This document shows, in pieces, positions 6,814 through 24,616 of a stretch of DNA of 53,187 bases. Source of the stretch: a virus; the IMG/VR virus record IMGVR_UViG_3300045988_092074, positions 1 to 53,187 of that record; one strand, given 5' to 3'. The position numbers and the translations under genes are program-made. Position 1 is the stretch's first letter. Each line of letters opens with the position of its first letter. The notes beneath the pieces were generated by a model. The model was not told where the DNA came from and did no database searches. It saw only the letters and a list, made by a program, of their open reading frames with translations.

Positions 6814-7080
6814 ATGGCAAGAAACGAAATGTTTGTAACAGCTTATAGGCTTGAAGTTGAGGCCATTCGAGAGAATTTGAGTAATATGGAGAACTTCATA
6901 GAAGCCATTTCGGATTGCGCTATCGTGTCCAATGAGGAAAGTAACGTAGCTATTATAGTAGCGTCTTCGGATGCCTTAGGAACAACGAAATTGGCTAATA
7001 TGGCACTCAGATTCTTTGGCAAGGAGGGATATAATATAAGTACTCTCGGACTTTTAGGGCCGTTCAAGAAACTCAATTGA
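6814..7080 (+). CDS. Early hypothetical protein, 88 aa
   Basis: ORF tightly packed after the 6648 ORF. Confidence 0.55.
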   Translation: MARNEMFVTAYRLEVEAIRENLSNMENFIEAISDCAIVSNEESNVAIIVASSDALGTTKLANMALRFFGKEGYNISTLGLLGPFKKLN

Positions 7081-7117
7081 TATTTTTTAACATAAAACTT
7101 GGAAAATAATTCTCAAA

Positions 7118-7172
7118 ACGGTTTTATAAATTGAATAAACATATTATATTTGCAATATCAAAATAAAACAAG
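7118..7172 (+). promoter_or_regulatory. Early promoter P3 (-7 box tatatttg at 7145-7152)
   Basis: ggttttat..17 nt..tatatttgcaatatcaaaataaaac. An exact TAnnTTTG match. The downstream leader aaaatttacagcattATG resembles the 32-nt leader end. Confidence 0.65.
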
Positions 7173-7198
7173 TAATAACAATTAAAATTTACAGCATT

Positions 7199-8320
7199 AT
7201 GGCAACAAAGAAATTTTCACAAATGACAACGAAGAAGTTAAATGCTCTTTTAGCAACAGCAAGTGACGAAGATAAAGCCGAGATTGAGGCTGTACTCGCA
7301 GCTCGTGAGCAAGCTCAAGCTCCAGTATCAGGAGAAACACAATCCGAAGTGGCAAACCCTGTACAGGAGTTCGAAGACACAGAGAACCCGTTAACACCTG
7401 AGGAAGAAGCAGCTATAAAAGCAGCAGAAGAGAACAATGGTGTCAATCCGATGAGCAATAGCAGCAAAGCAACTCTTGAGAAAAAGCCGAAGATGACCGA
7501 TGAGGAGCGCCATGCATTGGCCGAAGAGCTGAAAAAGAATATCAATCACCGCTGTCAAGCAGTCCCGTTCAATACTGTAGAATGGGTTGATGGTTACATC
7601 GCAGGAGTAGTCGAGGAGAAGCGCACAAACAAAGTTCTTTACGCTATTAAGACAGATGACGGACGCCGCATCGTTAAGGTGCATGACAGTAATCTTGTTC
7701 GCATTTTGGACGAAGTCATTGAGCCGGAAAAGAAAATTCGTGCTCGTAAAGCAAAAGATCCAGTAGATAAAATCGATTGGACACCGGAAGCAATCGCCGA
7801 AGAGATTAATGAAGTTATCGACAATGTCGGTAAAATGGTAGAATTTGAGAAATACCGTACTACAGATGAAAATGGTGAAGAGCATGCCGAAATGGTAGTC
7901 GGCCGTATTGTGGCAATCGTGCCAGATAAACGAGCTCAGCGTTTACTTTACCGTATTTTAGTCCCGACACCTATTGAAGGTAATCCACTTGCAGCAAAGA
8001 CAATGCATAAAGTCGCAAAAGCTGATGGCCTTAAAATTGCCGAAGAGTTCGACGAAGAAGGTATGCGGCTCAATGCTAAATATTTGGAACGCCGTGAGGC
8101 AGCAGCAACCCGCGCTCCGCTTACTCCGCAAGATCGCGTAATCCGTTGCGAAGAGAATGTTAAAAAGGCAGAAGAGAAGCTGCAGAAAGCTCAGGAAGAA
8201 CTGGAAGCTAAAAAGAAACAGCTTGAAGATGCAAAAAAGGAATTGGATGAATATTTAGCCGCTCAGGTGAATGAAACCCCAGCTAATGGTATTTCATCTG
8301 AAGAGGAATCACTTGCTTAA
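7199..8320 (+). CDS. Early acidic protein, 373 aa, with two internal beta-rich repeats and a C-terminal coiled coil
   Basis: Own promoter (P3) and a strong terminator. Internal repeat: VEWVDGYIAGVVEEKRTNKVLYAIKTDDGRRIVKV versus VEFEKY..AEMVVGRIVAIVPDKRAQRLLYRILV. Confidence 0.7.
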   Translation: MATKKFSQMTTKKLNALLATASDEDKAEIEAVLAAREQAQAPVSGETQSEVANPVQEFEDTENPLTPEEEAAIKAAEENNGVNPMSNSSKATLEKKPKMTDEERHALAEELKKNINHRCQAVPFNTVEWVDGYIAGVVEEKRTNKVLYAIKTDDGRRIVKVHDSNLVRILDEVIEPEKKIRARKAKDPVDKIDWTPEAIAEEINEVIDNVGKMVEFEKYRTTDENGEEHAEMVVGRIVAIVPDKRAQRLLYRILVPTPIEGNPLAAKTMHKVAKADGLKIAEEFDEEGMRLNAKYLERREAAATRAPLTPQDRVIRCEENVKKAEEKLQKAQEELEAKKKQLEDAKKELDEYLAAQVNETPANGISSEEESLA

Positions 8321-8346
8321 TGTTCGTTATATAGTTCTGCCATGAA

Positions 8347-8380
8347 AAGAGTCGTCTCGAAAGAGGCGGCTCTTTTTTTT
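8347..8380 (+). terminator. Rho-independent terminator
   Basis: aagagtcgtctc-gaaa-gaggcggctctt followed by a T-run reaching 8380 (two G:U pairs in the stem). Confidence 0.8.
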
Positions 8381-8663
8381 ATATCCTCACCATTTATGTT
8401 AAAATATGTAATCTTATAAAAGCATGCTTCTTTCGCGTTCTAGGACACTTTTAGGCTTTGAGTGTACTATAATATGGGTTAACTCAATTCGACGCGATAG
8501 AGGTCAAAAGAAGCGTATCTATCAATGTATTTTTATAAAGTCTATAATATGAATTGAGGTATGGACTTTCTTGAGTTTTAGGCCACCAGGCAGCTATATA
8601 AATAGTTGTTAAATTTATGGCTAATAGTTGACTCATTTTCTTGGCCTCTAGGATATTTTTATT

Positions 8664-9093
8664 CGAGAATAATAGTAAACCAAATCTATAAAAAGAAATG
8701 AGGAGAGAATGAACGAGAATAATGAAATTTCATATATTTTTGAATAGCTCAGAGGCTCTATGTTTTTGACCAAAGATGTGATGCAGCAGTGAAAATTTTT
8801 ATGTTAAAACCTGTAAAACAGCAATCTATTTCAAGGTTATTTTGTATTTTAGCTTATAAAAGAACAAAAGTAAAACTGTTAAAATATGTTACACACTAAA
8901 ATGCATAAAAGCCGCATGGCTATCATGGTTAAGCGGCTTATGCTTGTAGGTGCAGAGTGCATATTCTGTTATGCCTACGTAAGTGTGATACAGAAGTTAG
9001 CGGGAGAAACGGCCGAGAGAATACTTGCCATGACTGGACAAGAGAATACTATAAGGTCTAACAGGAGAAATATCACAAGCATAACAGGAGAAT
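8664..9093 (+). promoter_or_regulatory. Relaxed GAGAAT/GAGAAA repeats upstream of the 9096 gene (8664, 8705, 8715, then 9004, 9017, 9042, 9065, 9088)
   Basis: Read directly. cgagaataat appears twice. gagaat 8705 and 8715 are 10 bp apart. The last four copies are spaced 23-25 bp apart. Confidence 0.35.
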
Positions 9094-9095
9094 AA
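8886..9095 (+). CDS. Doubtful ORF, 69 aa
   Basis: The stop abuts the ATG of the next gene. However, the sequence is dominated by a hairpin (8903-8943) and GAGAAT repeats, so it may be a leader rather than a gene. Confidence 0.25.
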   Translation: MLHTKMHKSRMAIMVKRLMLVGAECIFCYAYVSVIQKLAGETAERILAMTGQENTIRSNRRNITSITGE

Positions 9096-9572
9096 ATGAG
9101 CAATTTTATTTTAGATTACAGCAAAAAGCAGACTTTGCAAATATCAAATGATGCTTTTTATTTTCTGTACTATGGTGAAGAGCCATTAGACGAAAATAAT
9201 TTAGAAGAAGCAAATGATGTGTCTGAAATGTTTTTCAATAACTTTTACATAGAAGATGATTGGAAAGCAGTTGATGATTCAGACCTTATAGAATGCACCT
9301 TTATTCCGTATATTGAAGATCAAGCAGATTATGATGAGTATGAGGATCTCACTAGACATATTCAGCAGCAAATAAAATGGCTTGATGCAAATCATGTTAG
9401 AGTATGGTGGTTTAATAGCCAAACTGGCACAAGAGAATTGCAAGGTGATTTTAAGGTTTATACAAACGAGTATGGTCATAAATGTTTTCATACCGGTAAT
9501 CAAGATGAGAACTTTATAACAGGAAAAATGTGTATATATTTTCTGAAAAATTTTAAGAAGCGCATATCCTAA
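9096..9572 (+). CDS. Hypothetical acidic protein, 158 aa
   Basis: ORF ending at the bidirectional terminator. Confidence 0.6.
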   Translation: MSNFILDYSKKQTLQISNDAFYFLYYGEEPLDENNLEEANDVSEMFFNNFYIEDDWKAVDDSDLIECTFIPYIEDQADYDEYEDLTRHIQQQIKWLDANHVRVWWFNSQTGTRELQGDFKVYTNEYGHKCFHTGNQDENFITGKMCIYFLKNFKKRIS

Positions 9573-9605
9573 AAAGCAGACTACAGAAAAGTAGTCTGCT
9601 TTTTT
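9571..9605. terminator. Bidirectional rho-independent terminator between convergent genes
   Basis: aaaaa-gcagactac-agaaaa-gtagtctgc-ttttt. An A-run and a T-run flank a perfect ~10-bp stem. Confidence 0.85.
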
Positions 9606-10326
9606 ACATTAGGCTTTCATCTTTTTCTACGACGAGAGAATAGCCGACACCTCTTATAGTTTCTATAACAACACGGCTGTCCATTTTAAGCATATTTCGC
9701 AACATACATATGTGAACGTCTAAGCTGCGTTTATTAAAGTAGTTATCATCAGCCCATACTTGTTGCATAAGTATTTTCTTAGGTAACGTTTCATTTTTAT
9801 AAGCGCATAGTAAAGCAAGAACTTGGCTTAGTTTATTATTAAGCTGTGTTTTTACATCGCCTACAGTAAGAATTTTATCTATTGTATTAAACAGGTAATC
9901 GCCTATCTCATAAGATGATTCTATATTTCTCACTCGTATACCGCACCTTTTTAAAACAGCTTTTATTCTTCTTATAAGCTCTTCAATATTATATGGCCTT
10001 ATTACGTAATCATCTGCACCTTCATCAAAAGCTTCTATGACATAATCATACCTAGCTTTATCTGACACCATTATTACTGGTATTTTATTATCTGATTTGC
10101 GTAAAAACTTTAATGGTTTTAACCTCATAGAAATATCTGTTGTCTTATAATGACTTAATATGCACAAGTCATAATTCTTTTCTCTGATTTTGGCCAATAT
10201 ATCCTTCTCAGTAGAGGTTATTACTTGAAAGCCATTATATACTAAGTAATCTACCAAAATTTTACAGTCTTCATCTTGATAGATTAAAATTCTCGGCAAT
10301 GCTAATTTAGTGTTATTACTTTTCAT
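9604..10326 (-). CDS. OmpR/PhoB-family response-regulator-like transcription factor with degenerate (phospho-acceptor-less) receiver domain
   Basis: 240 aa. The N-terminus aligns to the receiver fold (ILIYQDED..., VIMVSD, GADDYVIRPY). CILSHY sits where DLxxLD carries the acceptor Asp. The C-terminus is winged-helix Trans_reg_C-like (LSQVLALL...QQVW...RSLDVHICMLRNML...IETIRGVGYSL). Confidence 0.8.
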   Translation of the reverse strand: MKSNNTKLALPRILIYQDEDCKILVDYLVYNGFQVITSTEKDILAKIREKNYDLCILSHYKTTDISMRLKPLKFLRKSDNKIPVIMVSDKARYDYVIEAFDEGADDYVIRPYNIEELIRRIKAVLKRCGIRVRNIESSYEIGDYLFNTIDKILTVGDVKTQLNNKLSQVLALLCAYKNETLPKKILMQQVWADDNYFNKRSLDVHICMLRNMLKMDSRVVIETIRGVGYSLVVEKDESLM

Positions 10327-11201
10327 ACTATTTCTTTAATTTTGTTTTGTAAGTCATTATATAAAACTTCATACCAAAATGGATTAAGCCTTAACAAGTC
10401 AAAGTATGAGTATACACCTTTTTGGTATATTAAAGAAGCATATTTAAGCTCTTTGTCTGCTCTCTTTCTAAGATGCTCATGATAAAACTTTATGGACTGA
10501 TCTACATTTACCAAGAATAATGATTTATGCTCCATAAGAACTTTCTGCTCTGTGTTTTGAGCAAAATAGTATGGAATATCAGGCATTGCCCAAAAAGTCA
10601 ATCCAGAACCATATTCTTCACTTGCTTTGTATAAAAAGCCAGGGGATATTCGAATTGAGTCAGGATATAAGCTTTTACATATTCTTAATCTGCGCGGAAT
10701 AAAAGGATTAATCAATGTTGCTAATCGCTTATTTATATAAGCTGAATATTTATCCACCATCCGTGTATGCTCTTTAACAAGAGATGAAACCAGTAGTTTT
10801 ATTCTTTCGTTTCCTATAGGGTCACTAAGGCGTATATATTCTTGTCTAAAAGCTTCACGTTGGATGCGTATTCTATCTTCTTTAAGTCTTTGAGATTTTT
10901 TCTTTCTAGCTTCTATATTAGCCATTGCAGCTCTACGCTGTCCTTCAGGCCCAAATAGCTTTACACCATTGCAATTATTCCACCCTACACCAGTCCATGG
11001 CATTTTATCTCCATATCTAGCTTCAATCTCTCTGTTTTCCTGCTCTTCTTCAGATAATTCAACATGCTCTTCTTCCAAGGTAATTTTTTCAATTGCCTCA
11101 GATTGAGCCTCTTGAATATCCTCATCGTCGCTTTTAATTTCATCGAGAAATTCAAAGAGTTCCTTTTCGGTTAAGTCTCCATATTGCTTAATATCTTCCA
11201 T
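10323..11201 (-). CDS. Hypothetical protein, 292 aa (acidic N-terminus), translationally coupled to the regulator gene
   Basis: 4-nt overlap with the downstream gene. No kinase motifs seen. Confidence 0.6.
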   Translation of the reverse strand: MEDIKQYGDLTEKELFEFLDEIKSDDEDIQEAQSEAIEKITLEEEHVELSEEEQENREIEARYGDKMPWTGVGWNNCNGVKLFGPEGQRRAAMANIEARKKKSQRLKEDRIRIQREAFRQEYIRLSDPIGNERIKLLVSSLVKEHTRMVDKYSAYINKRLATLINPFIPRRLRICKSLYPDSIRISPGFLYKASEEYGSGLTFWAMPDIPYYFAQNTEQKVLMEHKSLFLVNVDQSIKFYHEHLRKRADKELKYASLIYQKGVYSYFDLLRLNPFWYEVLYNDLQNKIKEIV

Positions 11202-11936: not shown

Positions 11937-12617
11937 TTATAAGTTTTTAAGTTTTTGTTTATAATACTTTTCTTGCATATCAAAGTGTCTCTTATATATA
12001 TGCAAATCATGAGCAAAATGATAATAAGTGCCAATAGGTACACCAAGTTCATCTGCAACTAATTGTTGAAGCTTTGTCCAACAATATTGGTCATTGCAAA
12101 AGCCATAAACCAAATCGTTGCTTCGCATAGTTACACACATATCAAGAGTTCCTATTTGAGGCTTAATATCAAATCCGACTGATAGTGTACAAGGTGTATC
12201 ATGTTTATAGTCGTCTTTTTCTTTGCCGTCAAATATAGTAAGCCAAGCTTGACGAGTATCTTTATTCTCTCTAAGCTGCTTAATGCACTTTGCCAATTGA
12301 TTGTTGCGAGTCCATTGCCACCCATAGTTAGAATTGACAATATTGTCGCCACCGTGCATTTTATCCCATATAGGAGCATACTTTTTAATTTCAGCTACAC
12401 TCCTATCACATGACATGTACCAAGCGTATTCACGCTCTGCATATCGTTCGCTGAATTTGCGCCATTCTGTCGTTATAACTCGCTGCTGAGGATTAAGTAA
12501 ATAAAAACCAATGTTGTAAACAGCTCTTGTACCGACATTAGTATTTACTCCTTGGCCCATAATAAAAGCGTATAGATCTTCAAAAGCCTCAGTAGCATTT
12601 TTATAGGCTATGTTCAT
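11937..12617 (-). CDS. Thymidylate-synthase-superfamily enzyme resembling T4 gp42 deoxycytidylate hydroxymethylase
   Basis: Motifs APIWDKM, VNSNYGWQW, DTPCTLS (catalytic Cys), TMRSNDLVYGFCNDQYCW and DLHIYKRHF match what I recall of the dCMP hydroxymethylase pattern (INSNYGW, MRSNDVVFGFRNDYAW, SLHVYSRHF). Asp sits where ThyA has the dUMP-specifying Asn. I place the start at ATG 12617 (ATGA overlap with the upstream small ORF) rather than the TTG at 12644. Confidence 0.65.
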   Translation of the reverse strand: MNIAYKNATEAFEDLYAFIMGQGVNTNVGTRAVYNIGFYLLNPQQRVITTEWRKFSERYAEREYAWYMSCDRSVAEIKKYAPIWDKMHGGDNIVNSNYGWQWTRNNQLAKCIKQLRENKDTRQAWLTIFDGKEKDDYKHDTPCTLSVGFDIKPQIGTLDMCVTMRSNDLVYGFCNDQYCWTKLQQLVADELGVPIGTYYHFAHDLHIYKRHFDMQEKYYKQKLKNL

Positions 12618-12751
12618 TCTACCCAAATTTGTTTTGTTTGCCAATCCATTCTATTTCTTGATATTTTAAAAGCCTCTGCTTGTTTCCACGTATTAAAATA
12701 TTTAAGCAAAGTTCCCGTCGAGTCAAATACACCATATTGAATTTTTCCCAT
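12614..12751 (-). CDS. Small ORF, 45 aa (below the ORF-track cutoff)
   Basis: My translation is MGKIQYGVFDSTGTLLKYFNTWKQAEAFKISRNRMDWQTKQIWVE*. It fills the gap between two genes and is coupled at both ends. Confidence 0.4.
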   Translation of the reverse strand: MGKIQYGVFDSTGTLLKYFNTWKQAEAFKISRNRMDWQTKQIWVE

Positions 12752-12752
12752 A

Positions 12753-13208
12753 TCACTTAGCTATTTTATTAGTGCTGCTGTTATAAACCCTGAATAATAT
12801 TTCTTCTGCTTCCTCATTCATAGAATCACAAATACTTATTGCTTCTTCCATAGATAAGCCTGTGAGTTCTTCGTCATTATCGTTTATAGCAATTTCACCT
12901 GTTATAACCCTAATGTCAAATGAGTTTACAGAAGCAAAAGTTTTAGTAGCGTTAAGAGCTTGCACACAGATATAACACACGGCATCTTTGTATATAAACG
13001 ATAAAGTACTTGTACCTTTTAGTATATCTGCATAAAATTCTCTTAACTTTTCCGGTTTAAACCATCCGCTTTCATCCATCCGTTTATATTCCACAAGCCA
13101 TTTACCATACCCATTTGAAGCTTTAAACCTGTTAGCATAAATGGCCACAAATCTGAGAAATTGGTCTGTGTAAATGACTTGTGGAATTTCAACTGTTTTC
13201 TTTTTCAT
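12753..13208 (-). CDS. Hypothetical protein, 151 aa
   Basis: ORF with a 4-nt overlap with the upstream gene. Confidence 0.55.
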   Translation of the reverse strand: MKKKTVEIPQVIYTDQFLRFVAIYANRFKASNGYGKWLVEYKRMDESGWFKPEKLREFYADILKGTSTLSFIYKDAVCYICVQALNATKTFASVNSFDIRVITGEIAINDNDEELTGLSMEEAISICDSMNEEAEEILFRVYNSSTNKIAK

Positions 13209-13459
13209 AGAGCATCAAACTCTTTTTGCAATTCGTCAATGCGCTTTTGTATTCTAGCCAAAGCTAAAAGTTTCACATCTTCGAAGTTTACAAAGTTATT
13301 ATCCACTTCCATATACTTAGATTGTCCGCAATATGTTATTGTAGTACTAAGTTCTATTTTGTGAATAGCATTTGCTTCTTCCCATTTTTCTTTTTGCTCT
13401 ATAAGGTGTTTTATATACTTTATTAGCTCTCCACCTTTATTTAATTTTTCTTCTGTCAT
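13205..13459 (-). CDS. Hypothetical protein, 84 aa
   Basis: The ATG lies 21 nt downstream of a GCGAGAAT box. Confidence 0.55.
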   Translation of the reverse strand: MTEEKLNKGGELIKYIKHLIEQKEKWEEANAIHKIELSTTITYCGQSKYMEVDNNFVNFEDVKLLALARIQKRIDELQKEFDAL

Positions 13460-13478
13460 GATAATTAAAAAGTTTATA

Positions 13479-13564
13479 TATTCTCGCGCGTTCTAGAGCA
13501 CGCTTATTATTCCATTATTATTCACCATTCATGTACTTAAAGCGCGATATTGCGCGCGAGAATA
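13479..13564. promoter_or_regulatory. Perfect 12-bp inverted repeat tattctcgcgcg / cgcgcgagaata (GCGAGAAT boxes) separated by 62 nt
   Basis: Read directly (13479-13490 and 13553-13564). Occupies the whole intergenic gap between dut and the next gene. Confidence 0.7.
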
Positions 13565-13580
13565 ATGTGAAAATCAATCC

Positions 13581-14075
13581 TTAGTATGACCCAGTAGACC
13601 CGAGTGCCCCATCACCACGCTCAGATGAACGGCTGAAAAGCTCTGACTCAGAAACTTCTTCAAGGCCTTCATACGATACAGGCACAAGAATAAATTGTGC
13701 TATTTTCATACCTGGTTTAATGTGGACTTTAGCTTTACCTACGTTAACAAGATGTATATGAATTTCACCTTGATAATCTTCATCTACAATCTTGGCTCCT
13801 AGGATAACAATGCTCTCAAATGCTTCTGGCTTCGGTTTTCTATTAGCCATAATACAAGCCCATTTAGAAGTTACGACTCCTGACTTATCAGCTGCCATAA
13901 GCATATATCCTTCTGGAATCTCCATCTTAATACCTGATGGTATTAAAATATCAGTTCCTGGATTTACGATAAAACCTTTGTTACTACCGAAATTAGGAAC
14001 GAAAAAATCAATTCCTGCTGCCTTACCAGTTCCACGAACAGGGGATTTTACATTTCTTATTTTTGCAAATTTCAT
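13581..14075 (-). CDS. dut: Trimeric dUTPase-family nucleotide pyrophosphatase
   Basis: Motifs KAAGIDFF, IVDEDYQGEIHIHL and the C-terminal SERGDGALGSTG. Motif 2 reads AADKSG instead of the usual PRSS. Confidence 0.8.
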   Translation of the reverse strand: MKFAKIRNVKSPVRGTGKAAGIDFFVPNFGSNKGFIVNPGTDILIPSGIKMEIPEGYMLMAADKSGVVTSKWACIMANRKPKPEAFESIVILGAKIVDEDYQGEIHIHLVNVGKAKVHIKPGMKIAQFILVPVSYEGLEEVSESELFSRSSERGDGALGSTGSY

Positions 14076-14077
14076 GG

Positions 14078-14458
14078 TTACATCATTTCAATGAGTTTCT
14101 TAGCCGCTATTTCTACAGCTTTAGCAAATCTGTTTTTAACTTCCGGGCTTATAAGGCTGTAAACTCCTTCATTTTCAAAAGCATCGGCCATGATAGCTTC
14201 AATTTTTGAAAGCTTAGGATTAGAAGCGTTAATGCCATATTTATCCATAAGTTCTTTGTTATACTCATACTTAATACCTCTGCCATTTTCTACAGGAACA
14301 AGTTTGGCTATTTCTGCATAAGTATTTGGCTTTCTGCTCGTAGGAACAGCGATAATAATCTCTTGATTTGTTGTCATGCACAGATCTGTGCACATTTCCA
14401 TTACTTCATTGAAGTCACGCTTATACTCTCTTGGAGTTACTGAAATTAAACTTTTCAT
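14078..14458 (-). CDS. Hypothetical protein, 126 aa
   Basis: ORF with a 4-nt overlap with the upstream gene. Confidence 0.55.
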   Translation of the reverse strand: MKSLISVTPREYKRDFNEVMEMCTDLCMTTNQEIIIAVPTSRKPNTYAEIAKLVPVENGRGIKYEYNKELMDKYGINASNPKLSKIEAIMADAFENEGVYSLISPEVKNRFAKAVEIAAKKLIEMM

Positions 14459-14988
14459 AACGATACCAAATTAGCAATTAAGTTCAACATATATTCTTTG
14501 TCTTTACATCTTCCGAGCTTCATCTTATCTTTTAAGGCGAGAGCTACTAGCTGAACATTTATAAGATGATGTTTTGCATGAGACTCTTCGATTATATCGA
14601 TTATATCCAATAATACCCCTTTGGATATAATCTCATCGTAGCTTTCAGTCTTGTCAATGATAGCATTTATCTTGACTCCACCGATTACAAATGAGTAACA
14701 CGTGCTTTCTTCATAGTTTTCATTCCCAAGGTCAGACAGGAATTGAAGTTCTTTTAACTTTGCTTTCTGCTCTTCTTTCAAATGAAATACCTTTATATCT
14801 ATATCCTGTGGATTAGACGGAACTCCGAGCATATCCAGAGCAGTTGTACCTGTTACCATATACTCAATTTTATTTACTCTGCAAAAGTCATCGAGTTTGA
14901 ATAAAGCTTCTTTTATCTTCATCATATTATCTATATTTTTTAATAATAAAATGTCACTAAGTTTAATTACATTTTCTTTTATATCCAT
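14455..14988 (-). CDS. Putative nucleotidyltransferase-fold protein, 177 aa
   Basis: VTGTTALDMLGV...x...DIDIKV resembles the hG[GS]...DxD minimal NTase signature. Confidence 0.4.
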   Translation of the reverse strand: MDIKENVIKLSDILLLKNIDNMMKIKEALFKLDDFCRVNKIEYMVTGTTALDMLGVPSNPQDIDIKVFHLKEEQKAKLKELQFLSDLGNENYEESTCYSFVIGGVKINAIIDKTESYDEIISKGVLLDIIDIIEESHAKHHLINVQLVALALKDKMKLGRCKDKEYMLNLIANLVSL

Positions 14989-14996
14989 ATGTATTA

Positions 14997-15818
14997 TTAC
15001 ATTAAATCGTCCTCGAATAAGCTTGGTTGCTCAGTGACTTTAGGAGCAACTTTTATATCTCCTGGCTTGCGCTCTAACACCCAAAGAGTATTGCGCGAAG
15101 CATCCGGAAACATAGGAGCCATTATATTGGAAACGAGATTTGAGTCATAGTAATCTTTAAGAGCATCAAACATTTTTTGTTGCCAATCATTCATCAATGG
15201 CTTATAGTCTTTAGCCGAAGCAAATGTGCCGAACTTATTTACTATATCAAAATGTTTCAACAATATGCCTTCAAGCTCCCAATGGTCAAACTCTTGTACG
15301 TCAACCCCACGCCCATCACCAGAATCATAAGTATGATTACCAGCCGCTCCTACAGATGGATCGTAGTTCGGAGTTGAAAGATAATAAGTGGCGTCGTTAT
15401 TACCACAAGCCTTAAAGTTTTCCAAAAAAGCATCTGCATTCTGTTTGCCAACGTGCTCGATCACTTCAAAGGCACATACTTTATCAGCATTAAACTTGCT
15501 GAAATCCATGCAGTTTTTAACAAGATCAGCGACATAGAAATGAGCCCAAGGTATATCAGCATATTTTTCTGCTGCTCCTTGAATTGTTTTCTCACGAATA
15601 TCAATACCGATATATTCTTTCTGCTTAAACTTGTTTCGGTATAATACTTCAAGCAAGTTAGCAGCCCCACAGCCAAAATCAACAATAGATTCGCCAATCT
15701 TAGCCTCTTTCAGAATGTGAGTCCATCGCAGATAATGCGCAAATTGGTCTCTGTGGAATACGTGGCGCTCAAAAGCCTGATCAGGCCTGAGGTCTGTTGT
15801 GTTATATACTTTTGCCAT
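14997..15818 (-). CDS. Class I SAM-dependent methyltransferase, 273 aa (substrate unknown)
   Basis: Motif I VDFGCGAANLL, post-I GIDI, and FEVIEHV. No DPPY/NPPY-type DNA-MTase motif seen. Confidence 0.7.
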   Translation of the reverse strand: MAKVYNTTDLRPDQAFERHVFHRDQFAHYLRWTHILKEAKIGESIVDFGCGAANLLEVLYRNKFKQKEYIGIDIREKTIQGAAEKYADIPWAHFYVADLVKNCMDFSKFNADKVCAFEVIEHVGKQNADAFLENFKACGNNDATYYLSTPNYDPSVGAAGNHTYDSGDGRGVDVQEFDHWELEGILLKHFDIVNKFGTFASAKDYKPLMNDWQQKMFDALKDYYDSNLVSNIMAPMFPDASRNTLWVLERKPGDIKVAPKVTEQPSLFEDDLM

Positions 15819-15835
15819 ATTACTTAATGATTATT

Positions 15836-16129
15836 TTACATTTCATTTTCTTCCAGTTCACACTCTTCCAAATAGTCATTCATAGAGCCCATATAAGCTA
15901 CAGCATCGAGAAGATTATCTTCTTTGTGTGCGTAAGCTTCACGTGATAATTTAAGAGCTATCATAGCTCTATACATGCCAGCAGTTGTTATCGTCTGGCC
16001 TTCGGGTGTTATTAAGTTATAAATAGCGGCGGCTTTCGCCATTGACGCCATAAAAGGCCCGTACTGACGCTCTTTTTCCTCTGAGCGCTTATTCACAATC
16101 TGATTTGCTTTTTCTAAAATATTACTCAT
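15836..16129 (-). CDS. Hypothetical protein, 97 aa (DUF6378-like helical domain?)
   Basis: The ERQYGPF...MIALKLSREAY..EDNLLDAVAY pattern recurs in phage nucleotide-metabolism neighbourhoods. Confidence 0.4.
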   Translation of the reverse strand: MSNILEKANQIVNKRSEEKERQYGPFMASMAKAAAIYNLITPEGQTITTAGMYRAMIALKLSREAYAHKEDNLLDAVAYMGSMNDYLEECELEENEM

Positions 16130-16503: not shown

Positions 16504-16878
16504 TTATTGCTTTTCCGGGTATTCTATCTGCAGCAATTCTTTGCATAAAGTTATTACAACGTTATACTTATTGCTTAGTGCATTTATTATAATGCCTCTT
16601 TGCAATATAGTAAGCTTATTTTTTGCTACGAATAGATTGGTTTCTTTTATATAAGTGTCACTTCTGTAATACTTTCTATCTTTTAGCTGAATAGCCATTT
16701 CTGCATAATGAATACATTTCTCTATATCCTGTGCTCCGTTTTTAGCTTTATATCTGCTAATATACTTTATAATGCATCCTTGTATAAAGGAGCATCCTAA
16801 AGTGTTTATAAGTTCTATTGGCTGCATAATCATATCTTTATAATGGTTACCGCCTATTTGTATGTCTGTTGCTTTCAT
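16504..16878 (-). CDS. DUF3310-like phage protein, 124 aa
   Basis: The GGNHYKD..QPIELI...CIIKYISRYKAKNGAQDIEKCIHY pattern is typical of DUF3310. Confidence 0.55.
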   Translation of the reverse strand: MKATDIQIGGNHYKDMIMQPIELINTLGCSFIQGCIIKYISRYKAKNGAQDIEKCIHYAEMAIQLKDRKYYRSDTYIKETNLFVAKNKLTILQRGIIINALSNKYNVVITLCKELLQIEYPEKQ

Positions 16879-17358: not shown

Positions 17359-18801
17359 TTACATAAATTTTTTATATTTATCGATTTTTGCTTTTATGCT
17401 ATCCATTAAAGAGCTTTGCTTTTTATCTTTCAATTTAAGTGCTGTGATTACATCTTCGTCATGAGTGCCTTGCAGTATCAGATGATTTATGACAACGTGG
17501 TTCTGTTGGCCTTGGCGGTATAAACGCCCGTTAAATTGTTGATACAACTCAAGACTCCATGTTTGCCCAAACCAAACTATTACGCTGCCTCCTGCTTGAA
17601 GATTAAGACCATGCCCAGCTGATGCTGGGTGCGCCAACATAACTTGTATTTTGCCAGCATTCCAGTCTTCAATGTCTTTATTGTTTTTAAGTTCTCTTGG
17701 CTTGTATTGTTTAAGATATTCCATGATTCTATCCCTATCAAATTGATAAGTCCAGGCCACTAGTACAGACTGGCCATTCGCATCTTCAATTATCTCTTTA
17801 AGAGCATCGAGCTTAATATCATGGATTGGAAACACGTTTCTTTTCTCATCATATATGGCCCCATTTGCGAATTGAAGTAATTTATTTGAAAGAGCTGCAG
17901 CATTAATAGCATTTACTTCTACTGGTTTTTCTATAAATGCTGAATCCCCGTTTTCATCTTTTTGCTCAATTGTTTCAGTAGCATTTATTAAGTCAAGTAC
18001 TTTGTTCTTTTCAAAATCATCATATTGCTTTTTTATAGCTTCTGGCATCCTGAGCTTTATATAGTTATCTGTCCTGAGTGGCATTTCAAGATAATCATCT
18101 GCTCTCATGCTTATGCAAATGTCCTCTATTTTTTTATGTATTATATATTCTGAGTCATTCATCAGATCATAAGAATATACGATATGACCATTTGATTTGC
18201 CTGGCCGAAAATATCTTTCTCTATATCTGGATATTGTCTTTTCAAGGCGCTCACCTCTATCCATAAGATATATTTGAGGCCATAGGTCAATAAGCCCATT
18301 TGGGGCTGGTGTGCCAGTCAATCCAACTAAGCGCTTGAGATACGGCCTAGCTCCACGTAACGCCTTAAAGCGCTCTGACTTATATGACTTAAAACTACTA
18401 AGCTCGTCAACTACTACCATATCAAAAGGTAATTTGCCCCCGCCATACAAAGCGCAAAGCCACGCTACATTATCTCTTGATATAACATAGATATCAGCTT
18501 TTGTTTCCATGACAGCTGCTATTCGCTGCTTAGCAGTACCTATAATCTTAGAAAAGCGCAAATGCTTTAAGTGATCCCATTTCTCTGCTTCTTCTTGCCA
18601 GACTGACTCAGCTACTCTCTTTGGCGCTATGACTAGCACTGAGCTAATATCAAGATAGTCAAACATCAAATAGTTTATAGCTGTTAGGGTTGATACTGTC
18701 TTACCTAAGCCAAGATCGAGAAATACTCCACAAAATGGGTGCGTTATTATGTGCTCAATACAAGCTAATTGGTATTTATGTAAATTATTCTCTGTTAGCA
18801 T
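17359..18801 (-). CDS. SNF2/Rad54-family helicase
   Basis: Motif I DLGLGKT, motif II VVDELSSFK, LTGTP, and the C-terminal helicase block AGHGLNLQ...GRLYRQGQ. Confidence 0.85.
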   Translation of the reverse strand: MLTENNLHKYQLACIEHIITHPFCGVFLDLGLGKTVSTLTAINYLMFDYLDISSVLVIAPKRVAESVWQEEAEKWDHLKHLRFSKIIGTAKQRIAAVMETKADIYVISRDNVAWLCALYGGGKLPFDMVVVDELSSFKSYKSERFKALRGARPYLKRLVGLTGTPAPNGLIDLWPQIYLMDRGERLEKTISRYRERYFRPGKSNGHIVYSYDLMNDSEYIIHKKIEDICISMRADDYLEMPLRTDNYIKLRMPEAIKKQYDDFEKNKVLDLINATETIEQKDENGDSAFIEKPVEVNAINAAALSNKLLQFANGAIYDEKRNVFPIHDIKLDALKEIIEDANGQSVLVAWTYQFDRDRIMEYLKQYKPRELKNNKDIEDWNAGKIQVMLAHPASAGHGLNLQAGGSVIVWFGQTWSLELYQQFNGRLYRQGQQNHVVINHLILQGTHDEDVITALKLKDKKQSSLMDSIKAKIDKYKKFM

Positions 18802-18979
18802 TTTGTTCTTTTAGCAAGTACTTAATTTCTATTATATTTTTAGCTATACATTTAAGTAAAGCTTCACTGCTATTAGTAAATTTTAAAAGGCTTAACTCTG
18901 CATCTAAAAGTGTTTGGTTAAGCGCATTATTAACTTTTTGTGTATCTTTAATAAGTTTATCAGCTTCTTCTTCCATCAA
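18785..18979 (-). CDS. Hypothetical protein, 64 aa
   Basis: Fills the 158-nt gap between the VRR-NUC and SNF2 genes, with short overlaps at both ends. Confidence 0.45.
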   Translation of the reverse strand: MMEEEADKLIKDTQKVNNALNQTLLDAELSLLKFTNSSEALLKCIAKNIIEIKYLLKEQNANRE

Positions 18980-19268
18980 GTATGTTATTTATAAACTGTT
19001 CAACACCTTTTATTGTATCTATCACTTCGACTCTAAAGCCTAATGCTTGAAGCTTATTATACATATACATTTGTATACGTTTGGGCTTTTGTCCTGTCGT
19101 TTTTAATTCCACAAAAACTATTTTATGGCCTGGGAATAAGCACATCCTATCTGGTAAGCCTATAAGCTGGTCGCATAACAATTTTATGCACATACCACCA
19201 CTCATTTTGACAAGCTCAACCAATTTACGCTCTACAACTTTTTCGCTATCTACCGTCTTTTTATTCAT
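18960..19268 (-). CDS. VRR-NUC domain nuclease
   Basis: 102 aa. GLPDRMCLFPGHKIVFVELKTTGQKP is a PD-(D/E)XK motif typical of VRR-NUC. Confidence 0.7.
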   Translation of the reverse strand: MNKKTVDSEKVVERKLVELVKMSGGMCIKLLCDQLIGLPDRMCLFPGHKIVFVELKTTGQKPKRIQMYMYNKLQALGFRVEVIDTIKGVEQFINNILDGRRS

Positions 19269-19453
19269 AATCTGGCCATATAAATGTTATACTCACACTT
19301 ATCTAAATTAAATTCTAATCTGTCAACACAAAACATTTGGCCATTGTGTATAACAATTGTTTTGACAGACGGAATATGCTCTATGTTTTTTGTAACAAGG
19401 AGCACGGAATTACGGTAATTTCCATATTGCATTTTATAAAAATTCGCTATCAT
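19265..19453 (-). CDS. Hypothetical protein, 62 aa
   Basis: ORF coupled at both ends. Confidence 0.45.
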   Translation of the reverse strand: MIANFYKMQYGNYRNSVLLVTKNIEHIPSVKTIVIHNGQMFCVDRLEFNLDKCEYNIYMARL

Positions 19454-21852
19454 AATAAACTATCTTTACGCTTATAGTATTTTTGTTTGCCATATAGTGA
19501 AAAATTCTTAGTAGATGCTATAGCTTCCCATTCAGGCATTGACCTAATAATTTCATTAATCTCTCTTGTGTTATACCTAGACATATCATTCTTTTCTTTG
19601 CTAAGGCACTCACACCATATTTCAGCGATGCATACAAAGTCTTTTTGTACTGTGCCATTCTTAGACAATGGGTCTTCAAGCCAACGTCTTCTGTCGTACA
19701 AGTCCATTTTATCCCAGTCATCTGGAAATTTAGTATTAAGATACTCCTCGATAATACCTCTACGCTCATCTGTCTCTGAATGTTTGTGCTGCTCAATCTT
19801 AGCGATTATGTCTTCGTCACCAACAAGGTATAAAGGCTCTTTTGCTAAATATAGCTGATATGCCTCAGCCCATATTTGGTCTACTTCATCTTGAGTAAGA
19901 TCATCTATAACAGATTTTGTAACGTATTCTGGCCTTACATCTATAGGCATAAAGCGCCGGTTTCCTGTCGGGTCGCGTAAAAAGTCTTTATTGTTAGTAG
20001 TACCAAAAAACACGCATTGCCTTTTGTATGTTTCCACTGTTCTACCATACGCTGGCCTGAACATATCTTCTCTTTTTGATATGTAATGCTTAATCGATTC
20101 TACTTCTGCTTTCTTAAGACCTGAAAGCTCTGCCATTTCAATTAGCCACGCTCCTTGTATCTGCTCAAATGATTCCTTGCCCTGTACAGTCGTGAATGTA
20201 TCTGAGAACCATTCCATGCCGAGCTTTTTAACGAAAGTACTTTTATACGTTCCTTGTTCTCCGACCAATATGAGTGATGTGTCGAATTTAACTCCGGGCT
20301 CAAAAACTCTGGCGACTGCAGCACAGAGCATTTTTCTAATGGCAGCTCTAGTATAGGCATTATCTTCAGCCCCAAAATAATCGATTAACAGTGTATTGAC
20401 TCTAGGTATACTATCCCATTCTTGTTCCAGCAAGTACTTTCTTATAGGATGAAACTTCTTCTTTTCAAACTCAAGCGCAAGTGCGTCATCAACCTTTTGG
20501 CTTGATACAATACCATAAACACACTCAATATAATTACGCACACCGGAATAATCAACATCACGAAAAGGATCAATAGCGTCAATTTTACGCCAAGGTAACG
20601 AACGTGTAACATATCTTTTATTATCAAAAATATTTAACTTAAATACATCTTTTAAAAACTGATCATGTTGAATTATTATGTTCAGGTTGTTTGCTGAATT
20701 GTCATATTCGCCTTTTGTATTAGCATCAAGCTCTTCTGTCCATGAAGTATCATAGTCTTCAGGAGCTTCTGCTTTTGCTTCTTCTGTGAACTCGAATTTA
20801 GCTTCAGCAAACTTTTCTTCAGCGATATGCTTTTTTGTTGTAGAGTCTTTAGAGGCAAATTCTTCCATTGCCTTAAAGCTCTTTTTATCTTTGTCTTCTT
20901 TTTCTTTGCCTGTATCTAAATGGCCAAATTTATGTATGCGGACTAAGTCAAATGCATTACATAATCTGCCTCCTGCTGGGTCTGTTCCATGATGGGAATA
21001 TGCAAATTTATCATCATAGACTATTAAGCCCGCAGCCGTAGAGCCATTTATATATGTATATCGCCCTTCTCCAGCTGGTGTATATACATCTGAAAGAAAA
21101 GTCTCAATAGCTTCTTGTATAGTATAAGTACGGCAGAAAACACCAATTATGCCTTTTTTATCTTCTGGGTCTTCTTGCTTTTTAATAGCTTGCATTATTA
21201 CATCTGTGCTATCTGTAGCAGTTGGCCATTCGTTTGTGTCATGCCAATCATTATATAGCCCAAGGATATAATCAGCTTCAAGAAAAGGCCCGTCTTGAAA
21301 CTCAAAGTAGTATTCCATATCTGATGATACAGACGGCCAGAACATAAGTCTATTTACATCAAAAGTTGACTGGTCAAACAAATCAATGTTTAAGTCTCCT
21401 GCGACTTTTCTAGCAATAGCTTGATATTCTTCTTGCGATACTTCTCTATCGAGCGGAATTATCAATCTGTGCCGTGGCTTTTCAGGACACGACTTGTGAG
21501 TTGAATGTATAGCCGCAGCACACCCGAATAGCATTGTAAAATCCCACCAAAAATTTTCATGAGAAAAGTCAATATCCAATGTAATTAACTGGCGGTAAAG
21601 CACATTTGTTTTATCGCGCCTACCATTTGTAAGAAAGCCACCTACAAATCCTCCTACATCTTTTATCTTACTTTGCTCTTCTTTTGTAGCATTTATAAAC
21701 CGCTTGTATGTTTCAGTGGTTACTACAGGAGTAGCTAATTTTTGGACTAATCCGCTCCAAGTAATTTTGGTATTTTTCCATACTTTACTTGAGACATTTA
21801 GCCCTATAGCTATGCTCAAATTCTCATCATATTTCAATTTATCTACTTGCAT
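19450..21852 (-). CDS. Primase-polymerase / VirE-D5-type helicase fusion
   Basis: 800 aa. N-terminal prim-pol-like DxD (LITLDIDF). C-terminal P-loop VGEQGTYKSTF and FFGTTN...RRF, typical of VirE/D5 replicative NTPases. Confidence 0.75.
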   Translation of the reverse strand: MQVDKLKYDENLSIAIGLNVSSKVWKNTKITWSGLVQKLATPVVTTETYKRFINATKEEQSKIKDVGGFVGGFLTNGRRDKTNVLYRQLITLDIDFSHENFWWDFTMLFGCAAAIHSTHKSCPEKPRHRLIIPLDREVSQEEYQAIARKVAGDLNIDLFDQSTFDVNRLMFWPSVSSDMEYYFEFQDGPFLEADYILGLYNDWHDTNEWPTATDSTDVIMQAIKKQEDPEDKKGIIGVFCRTYTIQEAIETFLSDVYTPAGEGRYTYINGSTAAGLIVYDDKFAYSHHGTDPAGGRLCNAFDLVRIHKFGHLDTGKEKEDKDKKSFKAMEEFASKDSTTKKHIAEEKFAEAKFEFTEEAKAEAPEDYDTSWTEELDANTKGEYDNSANNLNIIIQHDQFLKDVFKLNIFDNKRYVTRSLPWRKIDAIDPFRDVDYSGVRNYIECVYGIVSSQKVDDALALEFEKKKFHPIRKYLLEQEWDSIPRVNTLLIDYFGAEDNAYTRAAIRKMLCAAVARVFEPGVKFDTSLILVGEQGTYKSTFVKKLGMEWFSDTFTTVQGKESFEQIQGAWLIEMAELSGLKKAEVESIKHYISKREDMFRPAYGRTVETYKRQCVFFGTTNNKDFLRDPTGNRRFMPIDVRPEYVTKSVIDDLTQDEVDQIWAEAYQLYLAKEPLYLVGDEDIIAKIEQHKHSETDERRGIIEEYLNTKFPDDWDKMDLYDRRRWLEDPLSKNGTVQKDFVCIAEIWCECLSKEKNDMSRYNTREINEIIRSMPEWEAIASTKNFSLYGKQKYYKRKDSLL

Positions 21853-21892
21853 AATACGCGTAAATAATATATAAGCACACCATAATCATATT

Positions 21893-23869: not shown

Positions 23870-23896
23870 TATTGTTTTATTTATTATTTATAATAG

Positions 23897-23971
23897 TGGG
23901 ATAGACGGGAGTCGAACCCGCAAGTGAACGCCTATACCTCGCCCTGTTTTACCAGTTAAACTTACTATCCC
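23897..23971 (-). tRNA. tRNA-like gene with canonical acceptor, D and T arms but aberrant anticodon arm (isotype undetermined)
   Basis: The minus strand reads GGGATAG-TA-AGTT-TAACTGGTAA-AACA-GGGCGAGGTATAGGCGTTC-ACTT-GCGGG-TTCGACT-CCCGT-CTATCCC-A. The anticodon region folds only as GGGCG/CGTTC (2 G:U pairs) with a 9-nt loop AGGTATAGG, or as a mismatched stem with loop GGTATAG lacking U33. Confidence 0.6.
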
Positions 23972-24032
23972 ATAAAAGAGGCCCAGGCTAATTAGTCCGG
24001 GCCTATCCCGGCGTAAACAAATGCCTCCGATA

Positions 24033-24593: not shown

Positions 24594-24616
24594 TTTCTTT
24601 AATTTTTAAGTTGTTA

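Follow-up and report, generated by a model that had tools for sequence, protein, structure and literature searches.

A methyltransferase-linked hydroxymethylase module in a gut Bacteroides-type phage points to a modified cytosine

The IMG/VR virus record IMGVR_UViG_3300045988_092074 comprises 53,187 nucleotides, and this whole stretch, hereafter the window, was the subject of our analysis. Judging from its gene content, it is likely a near-complete, siphovirus-like phage genome. A single co-directional, tightly packed block on its minus strand encodes a homologue of the thymidylate synthase ThyA, a protein of the dUTPase family and a class I S-adenosylmethionine (SAM)-dependent methyltransferase (MTase), together with several smaller proteins (Table 1). 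An earlier reading of this DNA, made from its letters and open reading frames (ORFs) alone and here called the sequence-only reading, had taken this neighbourhood for a base-modification module. Gene linkage across many phages, a characterised carbamoyltransferase of the type found in sister phages (PMC8670742) and the restriction resistance of a cultured carrier, Stenotrophomonas phage AXL3 (PMC7504290), all bear out that view. They point to a pathway in which cytosine would be replaced by a hydroxymethylated form that the MTase may then tailor.

Table 1 Features of the window. Related loci are the 86 non-redundant ThyA-like loci with sufficient upstream sequence; counts in close relatives refer to 80. 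aa, amino acids; SSB, single-stranded DNA-binding protein.
Feature	Position	Strand	Evidence
Large terminase	1133-2704		
262-aa ORF	2742-3530		
I-HmuI-like / NUMOD1 homing-endonuclease-type protein	3532-4326	-	
OmpR-type response regulator	9604-10326	-	Receiver domain and winged-helix Trans_reg_C
ThyA-superfamily enzyme, predicted deoxycytidylate (dCMP) 5-hydroxymethylase (T4 gp42 type)	11937-12617	-	226 aa from ATG; Pfam Thymidylat_synt 5.8e-24
45-aa ORF	12614-12751	-	31 of 80 close relatives
151-aa conserved protein, between dUTPase and hydroxymethylase	12753-13208	-	79 of 86 related loci; 41% identical in BF486P2
84-aa ORF, poorly conserved filler	13205-13459	-	8 of 80 close relatives; no Pfam or PHROG match
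Trimeric dUTPase-family nucleotide pyrophosphatase	13581-14075	-	Pfam dUTPase 1.6e-16; TIGR00576 1.4e-23; best PDB dUTPase 9e-15
126-aa protein, kept in close relatives only	14078-14458	-	68 of 86 related loci; none in distant modules
TM1012-like minimal nucleotidyltransferase-fold candidate, 177 aa	14455-14988	-	PDB TM1012 'putative nucleotidyltransferase', E 0.017, residues 28-163
Class I SAM-dependent MTase (Hen1/UbiG-like), predicted tailoring enzyme	14997-15818	-	Pfam Methyltransf_23/12/25/31/11
DUF6378 protein	15836-16129	-	Pfam DUF6378 1.3e-10; usually immediately upstream of MTase in the lineage
DUF3310 protein	16504-16878	-	Pfam DUF3310 1.5e-08; PHROGs 'nucleotide kinase', best phrog_236 1.3e-15, DUF3310 part only
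Replication module: DUF2800 exonuclease, Enc34-type SSB, family-A DNA polymerase, VapE primase-helicase, VRR-NUC, SNF2 helicase	17359-25819	-	

The closest solved relative of the ThyA homologue in a PDB sequence search was the dCMP hydroxymethylase of phage T4 (1.5e-17), followed by the cytidylate (CMP) hydroxymethylase MilA (1e-16), with thymidylate synthases at 1e-10 or worse. Scores against the NCBIfam thymidylate-synthase equivalogs lay far under every cut-off (in one case 77.5 bits where 327 are required). A TTG at 12644 would extend the protein to 235 residues, yet its homologues begin at MNIAYK, which confirms the ATG. Both the length of 226 residues and the strings VNSNYGW, TMRSNDLVYGFCNDQYCW and LHIYKRHF, which the sequence-only reading had cited for a hydroxymethylase, are present.

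We aligned the window protein and its relatives with T4 gp42, RB69 gp48, SPO1 gp29 and M6 gp58, all taken from genome records, and with an E. coli ThyA reference sequence that carried the expected residue at 17/17 landmark positions. In E. coli numbering, the landmark residues of the window enzyme are E58, W80, M83, Y94, D143, C146, T147, R166, S167, N168, D169, D177, H207 and Y209, and 13 of these 14 are the same in T4 gp42. The catalytic Cys (E. coli C146, T4 C148), the phosphate-binding R166 and S167, and H207 and Y209 are all kept. E. coli ThyA departs at 143, 147, 168 and 177, and its Trp83 is Met in the window enzyme. The Asp of the 'FCND' string aligns with D179 of T4 gp42 and N177 of E. 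coli ThyA, and so occupies the site at which the sequence-only reading had placed it; the dUMP hydroxymethylases SPO1 gp29 and M6 gp58, unlike the window enzyme, have Asn there. Three residues before the catalytic Cys, in 'HDTPC', an Asp takes the L143 position as it does in T4, SPO1 and M6, where E. coli has Leu. The string 'RSND' retains D169, which in RB69 gp48 ('RSQN') is Asn. The C-terminal segment closes the active site over folate in thymidylate synthase; the tail after Y209 has 18 residues in the window enzyme, 55 in E. coli ThyA, 157 in SPO1 and 134 in M6. The family counts more than 4,400 database proteins, and the members aligned here, whether from gut, marine or soil phages, from AXL3 or from a freshwater podovirus metagenome-assembled genome (MAG), show the same active-site signature.

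The residue rules of the superfamily, in E. coli ThyA numbering, were summarised and experimentally extended in 2026 (PMC13326640). According to that work, N177D selects dCMP as substrate, an acidic residue (D/E) at L143 goes with a hydroxymethyl rather than a methyl product, and D169N marks the flavin-dependent 5-hydroxy-dCMP synthases RB69 gp48 and DLP3 gp80, with Asn in all those tested (PMC13326640). In our alignment we checked these rules on RB69 gp48 (D169N), on SPO1 gp29 and M6 gp58 (Asn177) and on E. coli ThyA. We accordingly assign the window ThyA homologue, by its predicted activity, to the dCMP hydroxymethylases as a new member. The sequence-only reading had preferred this pattern over thymidylate synthase and had proposed a comparison with T4 gp42, SPO1 gp29 and ThyA at the specificity residue; that comparison places the enzyme with T4 gp42, and the active-site signature and the best PDB relatives agree.

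Ordinary salvage, in which the dUTPase would yield dUMP and the ThyA homologue would convert it to dTMP with no base modification, has in its favour the label 'thymidylate synthase' given by Pfam, PHROG and NCBIfam, and the classical pairing of dUTPase with ThyA. We nevertheless consider it extremely improbable, given the low equivalog scores, the short tail (18 against 55 residues), the exchange of Asn177, Leu143, His147 and Trp83 for the D, D, T and M that T4 gp42 also has, and the presence of ThyX in related phages. On the same grounds of residues, tail and scores, we rejected a bona fide thymidylate synthase. Because relatives encode ThyX and dCMP deaminase beside the ThyA homologue, the homologue would not be their source of dTMP.

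It is also conceivable, and in our judgement very unlikely, that the enzyme makes another C5-substituted pyrimidine: 5-methyl-dCMP as in XP12, 5-hydroxy-dCMP as in RB69, or 5-hydroxymethyl-dUMP as in SPO1 and M6. The residue rules are correlative, and some relatives encode HMUDK_hel proteins, a family characterised only on 5-hydroxymethyldeoxyuridine (5-hmdU) DNA (PMC8989533). Against this, D169 is kept where the tested 5-hydroxy-dCMP synthases have Asn (PMC13326640), position 177 is Asp where SPO1 gp29 and M6 gp58 have Asn, the Asp at 143 is of the hydroxymethyl type and not bulky and hydrophobic, and the ThyX of relatives argues against replacement of T. Two class assignments were accordingly rejected for the enzyme, that of RB69 gp48 and DLP3 gp80 for lack of D169N and that of SPO1 gp29 and M6 gp58 for its Asp177 and short tail. 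The XP12 dCMP methyltransferase was not among the 60 listed of the 89 records matching the AXL3 enzyme, so the 5-methyl-dCMP alternative is judged by the L143 rule only. The sequence-only reading had allowed for either C or T to be replaced by a 5-hydroxymethyl pyrimidine; the core of that proposal stands, narrowed to C by Asp177 and by the relatives' ThyX.

The MTase carries the SAM-binding features VDFGCG and GIDIR and scored above the cut-off of five Pfam Methyltransf families. Its earlier description as a class I SAM methyltransferase lacking the DNA-MTase motif IV was upheld by Pfam and by motif inspection: the sequence contains neither a DPPY-type motif IV nor a PC dipeptide, no DNA-MTase Pfam family matched, and no DNA MTase was among the best 50 Foldseek matches of its AlphaFold2 (AF2) model. 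That model, with a mean predicted local distance difference test (pLDDT) of 86.7, matched class I MTases at E 1e-11. A substrate could not be read from the structure, as Foldseek against the PDB returned ~940 generic class I matches with template-modelling (TM) scores of ~0.5 and no specific relative. The sequence relatives in the PDB were the 2'-O-methyltransferase domains of Hen1 (3e-5 with the single sequence, 2.6e-7 with a profile) and, more weakly, one further match, the methyltransferase HvrF. The family and Hen1 have the motifs E-V-[IL]-E-H and STPN in common. All family members keep E118, E121 and H122 ('EVIEH') and H162, and the Hen1 alignment ends before H162. The model TIGR04074 gave 27 bits against its 340-bit cut-off.

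Between gut and marine phages the MTase is 72-73% identical, compared with 43-60% for the adjoining dUTPase, hydroxymethylase and SNF2 helicase. Remote orthologues are 25-35% identical to the window's protein and have ~40 invariant residues in common with it, including the motifs HRD..H..RW, GCG, EV[IL]EH, STP, A.NH and RN.LW. A 12-residue insert, TYDSGDGRGVDV, sets the window type apart from the AXL3 type. Relatives are abundant in metagenomes (at least 427) and were found in 5 of 50,697 cultured phage records; a representative library of 1.84 billion proteins held 140 clusters of the family at 50% identity (E<=1e-30). Longer members (P0370, P0458, P0472 and others), inspected as possible Rosetta-stone fusions, contain no extra domain recognisable by Pfam.

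We defined a module as MTase / nucleoside triphosphate (NTP) pyrophosphatase / (kinase) / dCMP hydroxymethylase / (dCMP deaminase), and took it to be present where an orthologous MTase lies a few genes upstream, on the same strand, of a ThyA homologue with D143, D169 and D177, with a nucleotide pyrophosphatase between them. The MTase, dUTPase and ThyA-like genes of the window have this arrangement, all on the minus strand. The P-loop deoxynucleoside monophosphate (dNMP) kinase and the dCMP deaminase of the full module were not found in the window's operon. The sequence-only reading had recognised neither a dNMP kinase nor a glycosyltransferase; a search of the entire 53-kb window likewise gave no P-loop kinase, glycosyltransferase, dCMP deaminase or ThyX.

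The MTase was present at 80 of the 86 related loci. In marine phage contigs the MTase, dUTPase and ThyA-like genes are contiguous and lie beside the same replication module and a dCMP deaminase, and one NCBI-assembly contig has the cluster with ThyX too. At divergent MTase loci from IMG/VR, a ThyA-like gene lay within 5 kb in 18/18. Of 44 environmental loci whose sequence continues for 3 kb or more past the MTase on its downstream side, 43 showed the order MTase / PRA-PH / kinase / ThyA-like, with the kinase in 41 of the 44 and the dCMP deaminase in 35; their ThyA homologues read RS[SN]D and PYD, keeping D169 and having Asp at 177. Among these 44 adequately flanked loci, a single exception had the MTase without a D177-type ThyA homologue. 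The same operon is carried by Stenotrophomonas phage AXL3, by Pseudoxanthomonas phage PW916 and by MW202510; in AXL3, PW916 and a freshwater podovirus genome it runs MTase / PRA-PH MazG-like pyrophosphatase / dNMP kinase / ThyA homologue / dCMP deaminase. IMG/VR scans from more distant ThyA-like seeds mostly returned the same gut-phage clade. Of all partners of the hydroxymethylase, the MTase is the most conserved and the most diagnostic. Its membership in the module, proposed in the sequence-only reading, stands; its ranking there as one item among others does not. It defines a widespread module, for which a restriction-resistance phenotype is documented in one cultured member. The literature searched, outside which the Iyer/Aravind 2013 survey of base modification lay, gave no link between a phage hydroxymethylase and a SAM methyltransferase, and no mention of methoxymethylcytosine or related terms.

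In the sister phages of Bacteroides fragilis, the segment from SNF2/DUF3310 to the dUTPase has no MTase. It encodes instead a 611-aa carbamoyltransferase (Carbam_trans_N/C), an AAA_28 P-loop kinase and a second, divergent ThyA homologue. A carbamoyltransferase of the same family, from a sewage phage contig that also encodes a thymidylate-synthase homologue, converts 5-hydroxymethylcytosine (5hmC) to 5-carbamoyloxymethylcytosine on DNA and on the triphosphate, and leaves 5-methylcytosine and 5-hydroxymethyluracil (5hmU) unconverted (PMC8670742, MetaGPA, eLife 2021). The same work selected contigs physically for modified cytosine and saw enrichment in them of the Pfam families Thymidylat_synt, dUTPase, DUF2800, SNF2_N, AAA_28 and Carbam_trans (PMC8670742). 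The cultured B. fragilis phages probably contain 5-carbamoyloxymethylcytosine. In phage BF486P2 (OP172667) the three genes lie at L001:3653-6929. Its second ThyA homologue, encoded besides the gp42-type enzyme, has Leu at E58 and Lys at W80 and keeps C146, D169 and D177; both homologues are annotated as 'deoxycytidylate 5-hydroxymethyltransferases'.

A third kind of enzyme occupies the MTase slot in locus L166, whose ThyA-like protein is 74-77% identical to that of the window: an HMUDK_hel protein (L166:6471-7472). This family comprises 5-hydroxymethyl-base DNA kinases, characterised so far on 5-hmdU DNA only (PMC8989533). The slot therefore alternates among three enzymes, each either active on the hydroxymethyl group of a base or related to an enzyme that is. 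An HMUDK_hel protein (4e-51) is also encoded at L155:8865-11399, and in L151, L160 and L165, beside an Asp177 ThyA homologue. Because the neighbouring ThyA homologue has Asp at 177, its sequence suggests that HMUDK_hel in these relatives may be a 5hmC DNA kinase rather than a 5-hmdU kinase. The MTase cluster of L155 additionally encodes a 272-aa protein that matches the N-terminal domain of SAM synthetase only.

These neighbourhoods also bear on whether the MTase belongs to the pathway at all. The phage could have plain 5hmC DNA and a co-inherited MTase that acts elsewhere, for example in Hen1-like 2'-O-methylation of RNA 3' ends or on a small molecule. The nearest solved sequence relatives are indeed RNA 3'-terminal 2'-O-methyltransferases, Foldseek was non-specific, and descent alone can conserve gene order in phage replication modules. 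Yet the linkage holds down to MTase identities of ~25-30% and across unrelated architectures (sipho-like gut phages, marine phages, podovirus-like MAGs and AXL3), and it breaks at only one of the 44 adequately flanked loci. The MTase always lies directly beside nucleotide-pool enzymes, its slot in sister phages is taken by hydroxymethyl-tailoring enzymes, and no RNA-repair partner (Pnkp, ligase) adjoins it in the window. We therefore regard an unrelated role for the MTase as unlikely.

Phage AXL3 connects the module to a phenotype. Its DNA was cut by 2 of 37 restriction enzymes, TasI and Tru1I, which have A/T-only sites, and resisted 35, all with G/C in the site (PMC7504290). The paper attributes this to a modification of G/C bases whose nature it leaves open, and lists gp27-gp31 as 'thymidylate synthesis' genes (PMC7504290). 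In our analysis the AXL3 module (MT536174, L272) lies at 6971-11005, and gp28 within it is a cytosine-type hydroxymethylase by residue signature, an assignment that probably explains the resistance at G/C-containing sites. AXL3 also encodes ThyX as gp50, predicted to be its real source of dTMP.

Gut and marine phages alike have the dUTPase gene placed between those of the MTase and the hydroxymethylase; distant modules have a PRA-PH/MazG-type NTP pyrophosphatase in its place. The window protein contains the dUTPase motifs AGIDF, (D)KSG, VDEDYQGE, KIAQ and RGDGALGSTG. Apart from motif 2 they are intact, the catalytic Asp and Tyr in motif 3 and the P-loop-like motif 5 among them. Motif 2 reads DKSG, compared with PRSG in E. 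coli, and is followed by a 14-residue insert. The deviation of motif 2 noted in the sequence-only reading is real, and the altered specificity drawn from it does not follow, as Lys simply stands for Arg. Throughout the phage lineage Lys replaces the near-universal Arg of this motif (DKSG, NKSG or NKSS), and the insert between motifs 2 and 3 is a feature of the gut-phage branch. Since recognition of the base in dUTPase structures is a matter of main-chain atoms in the motif-3 hairpin, the sequence does not decide between dUTP and dCTP. Homology with the T4 dCTPase/dUTPase gp56 was rejected, BLASTP giving no alignment. From its position, the dUTPase is a candidate for an enzyme that clears dUTP or dCTP and supplies dNMPs, and a dCTPase-like role is argued from position alone.

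Taken together, these observations suggest pre-replicative, T4-type replacement of cytosine with methylation as the tailoring step, encoded by a core block at 11937-16129 on the minus strand; we put the probability of this reading at roughly 0.55. In the first step, the ThyA homologue would convert dCMP and methylene-tetrahydrofolate to 5-hydroxymethyl-dCMP, water rather than hydride resolving the exocyclic methylene intermediate. The dUTPase-family enzyme would turn dUTP, and possibly dCTP, into the monophosphate, thereby feeding the pathway and keeping an unwanted triphosphate out of DNA, a role that its position suggests. A kinase, either the host's or one not recognised among the phage genes, would then phosphorylate the 5-hydroxymethyl-dCMP, and the phage family-A DNA polymerase would incorporate the nucleotide; a P-loop kinase occurs in distant modules and in BF486P2, and none was recognised in the window. 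Finally, the Hen1/UbiG-like MTase would methylate hydroxymethylcytosine on the nucleotide or on DNA, most simply by O-methylation of the 5-CH2OH group to give 5-methoxymethylcytosine. O-methylation is favoured because the enzymes that replace the MTase in its slot are hydroxyl-directed and its PDB sequence relatives are Hen1 O-methyltransferases. The SAM-synthetase-like gene in the module of a relative was counted in its favour too. The virion DNA would then have C replaced by a capped hydroxymethylcytosine derivative that could resist both classical restriction and hydroxymethylcytosine-dependent type IV enzymes. The nucleotidyltransferase-fold gene and the small ORFs would not be required parts.

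Several observations weigh against this pathway. Its weakest part is the MTase step. The Foldseek matches of the AF2 model were generic class I enzymes, N- and C-methyltransferases included, and thus speak neither for a substrate nor for a regiochemistry. L155-type relatives hold the MTase and an HMUDK-like kinase together, which would be rivals for one hydroxyl if both act on 5-CH2OH, and the combination of MTase, HMUDK-like and SAM-synthetase-like proteins in L155 fits methylation of another atom equally well. With no recognisable dNMP kinase, dCTPase or dCMP deaminase in the window, replacement of C may be partial or host-dependent. By its catalytic motifs the dUTPase seems canonical, and its sequence does not reveal which base it prefers. 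Palindrome counts are a further point. GATC occurs 156 times on both strands of the window where 310 were expected from a Markov model (ratio 0.50), and CTAG (0.61), CATG (0.70) and GAATTC (0.25) are also under-represented. Because full protection of C-containing sites would not predict avoidance, the deficit of GATC and some other G/C-containing palindromes counts against such protection; as a whole, the palindrome statistics are ambiguous.

The L155-type loci are also an argument for a variant of the same pathway in which the methyl group goes to a different atom, as in N4-methyl-5-hydroxymethylcytosine, leaving 5-CH2OH free for more tailoring. HMUDK_hel kinase-like proteins need a free hydroxyl, and the top Foldseek matches of the MTase are N-methyltransferases and cap N7-methyltransferases. 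In other relatives, however, hydroxyl-directed enzymes replace the MTase and do not accompany it, and its relatives at the sequence level are O-methyltransferases. We consider methylation at another atom quite unlikely. Our proposal for the final product remains O-methylation. In its full form, which we put forward tentatively, the module would make an undescribed base, a methylated 5hmC and most simply 5-methoxymethylcytosine, that would replace C in an abundant set of human-gut Bacteroides-type phages and in many phages of marine, freshwater and soil origin; this base would be the G/C modification of AXL3, and the MTase would be the first of a new family, the nucleobase hydroxymethyl O-methyltransferases. 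What the final base is chemically is a prediction, and the strategy, a pre-replicative hydroxymethyl-pyrimidine, is a known one in a new form.

If the proposal is true, the module is a genetic signature for an uncharacterised and common cytosine hypermodification, whose carriers include prevalent ~50-kb phages of the human gut. SAM-dependent capping would then join glucosyl, arabinosyl, carbamoyl and amino-acid tailoring of phage pyrimidines. This would bear on evasion of restriction and CRISPR, on the recovery of phages by sequencing and enzymatic library methods, and on host-range engineering of Bacteroides phages. AXL3, a cultured carrier with the expected restriction phenotype, makes the prediction immediately testable.

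The 177-aa protein had been read as a minimal nucleotidyltransferase-fold protein, and its match to TM1012, which includes the shared string VTG[ST]..GVP....DIDI, is weak though full-length; no Pfam, PHROG or NCBIfam family matched. The gene occurs in 45/86 related loci and in no distant module, and is probably accessory and outside the pathway, so the place given to it in the modification theme is not supported. No Pfam, PHROG, NCBIfam or PDB match was obtained for the 151-aa protein, and no family or PDB match for the 126-aa protein. The sites of the 45-aa and 84-aa ORFs are hot spots of small-gene turnover in an otherwise conserved operon.

Upstream of the MTase, the DUF6378 gene is present in 78/86 related loci and adjoins the MTase gene in the divergent loci L093-L095, L100, L151, L155, L159, L160, L163 and L165. 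Its AF2 model is a four-helix bundle (pLDDT 91.6) for which the PDB gave no structural match at E<0.9 and no sequence match. DUF6378 as a MazG/gp56-like dCTPase was rejected: the profile-profile probability against T4 gp56 was 0.1%, and it has no PDB relative. The DUF3310 protein was likewise considered as the missing kinase and is kept as a weak possibility, since only the C-terminal 70 residues of T7 gp1.7 align with it (E 0.14).

Beyond the terminase and replication module, the window encodes lysis genes and a long structural block. No nucleotide-level match to it was found among the 50,697 phage records. The nearest cultured relatives are the B. fragilis phages BF486P2, BF494P1 and BF503P, which are 52-54 kb long and syntenic, with protein identities of 38-74%; no publication on the BF486P phages was found in the literature searched. 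More than 80 IMG/VR contigs of ~50 kb have the window's ThyA-homologue gene at 88-99% identity. The window phage is a gut, Bacteroides-type phage. Its response regulator is kept in 74 close relatives and also in L166 and L167, and a cognate kinase is not visible. The homing-endonuclease-type gene lies two genes from the large terminase, with the 262-aa ORF between them; I-HmuI is the intron endonuclease of SPO1, a phage with hmU.

Biosynthetic parallels to the pairing of hydroxymethylase and MTase exist outside phages. In bacimethrin biosynthesis, the ThyA-type CMP hydroxymethylase BcmA is paired with the SAM methyltransferase BcmC, a precedent for the pairing seen here, and mildiomycin biosynthesis offers MilA, which ranked second among the solved relatives of the window enzyme (1e-16). 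These two pathways act on ribonucleotides or the free base and make antibiotics, and BcmC methylates O2, which would be incompatible with base pairing. Among phages, thymidine hypermodification in Pseudomonas phage M6 and Salmonella phage ViI resembles the proposed scheme in that a ThyA-family enzyme installs a CH2OH handle before replication and modular tailoring follows (PMC8989533); HMUDK_hel occurs in the same slot of some relatives of the window phage. M6 differs in that its gp58 has Asn177 and uses dUMP where the window enzyme has Asp, and no HMUDK or aGPT-Pplase genes were found in the window.

T4 is the model for the proposed strategy. The ThyA homologue shows the active-site pattern of gp42 at 13/14 landmark positions; distant modules hold an NTP pyrophosphatase, a dNMP kinase, the hydroxymethylase and a dCMP deaminase in one operon, corresponding to gp56, gp1, gp42 and cd; and a tailoring enzyme is encoded beside the hydroxymethylase, as beta-gt is beside gene 42. 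The differences are that the window enzyme is only 26-28% identical to gp42, that the pyrophosphatase of the window is a trimeric dUTPase with no homology to gp56, that the window has no recognised kinase, deaminase or glycosyltransferase, and that tailoring would be by a SAM methyltransferase and not by a glucosyltransferase.

The B. fragilis phages BF486P2 and BF503P, with their 5hmC carbamoyltransferase, share the architecture of the window phage, including ThyA-like, dUTPase and SNF2 helicase proteins that are 60%, 55% and 74% identical, and combine a hydroxymethylase with a tailoring enzyme that acts on hydroxyl groups and is encoded in the corresponding slot. In place of the carbamoyltransferase, AAA_28 kinase and second ThyA homologue, the window has the MTase, DUF6378, 177-aa and 126-aa genes, and because this set replaces the carbamoyltransferase set, its product is predicted to be other than 5-carbamoyloxymethylcytosine. 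AXL3 differs from the window in the low identity of its MTase (25-27%), in having PRA-PH/MazG instead of the dUTPase, and in encoding a kinase, a deaminase and ThyX. In gp27-gp31 of AXL3, and in PW916, the orthologous MTase lies by an NTP pyrophosphatase, a kinase, a D177/D143-type ThyA homologue and a dCMP deaminase.

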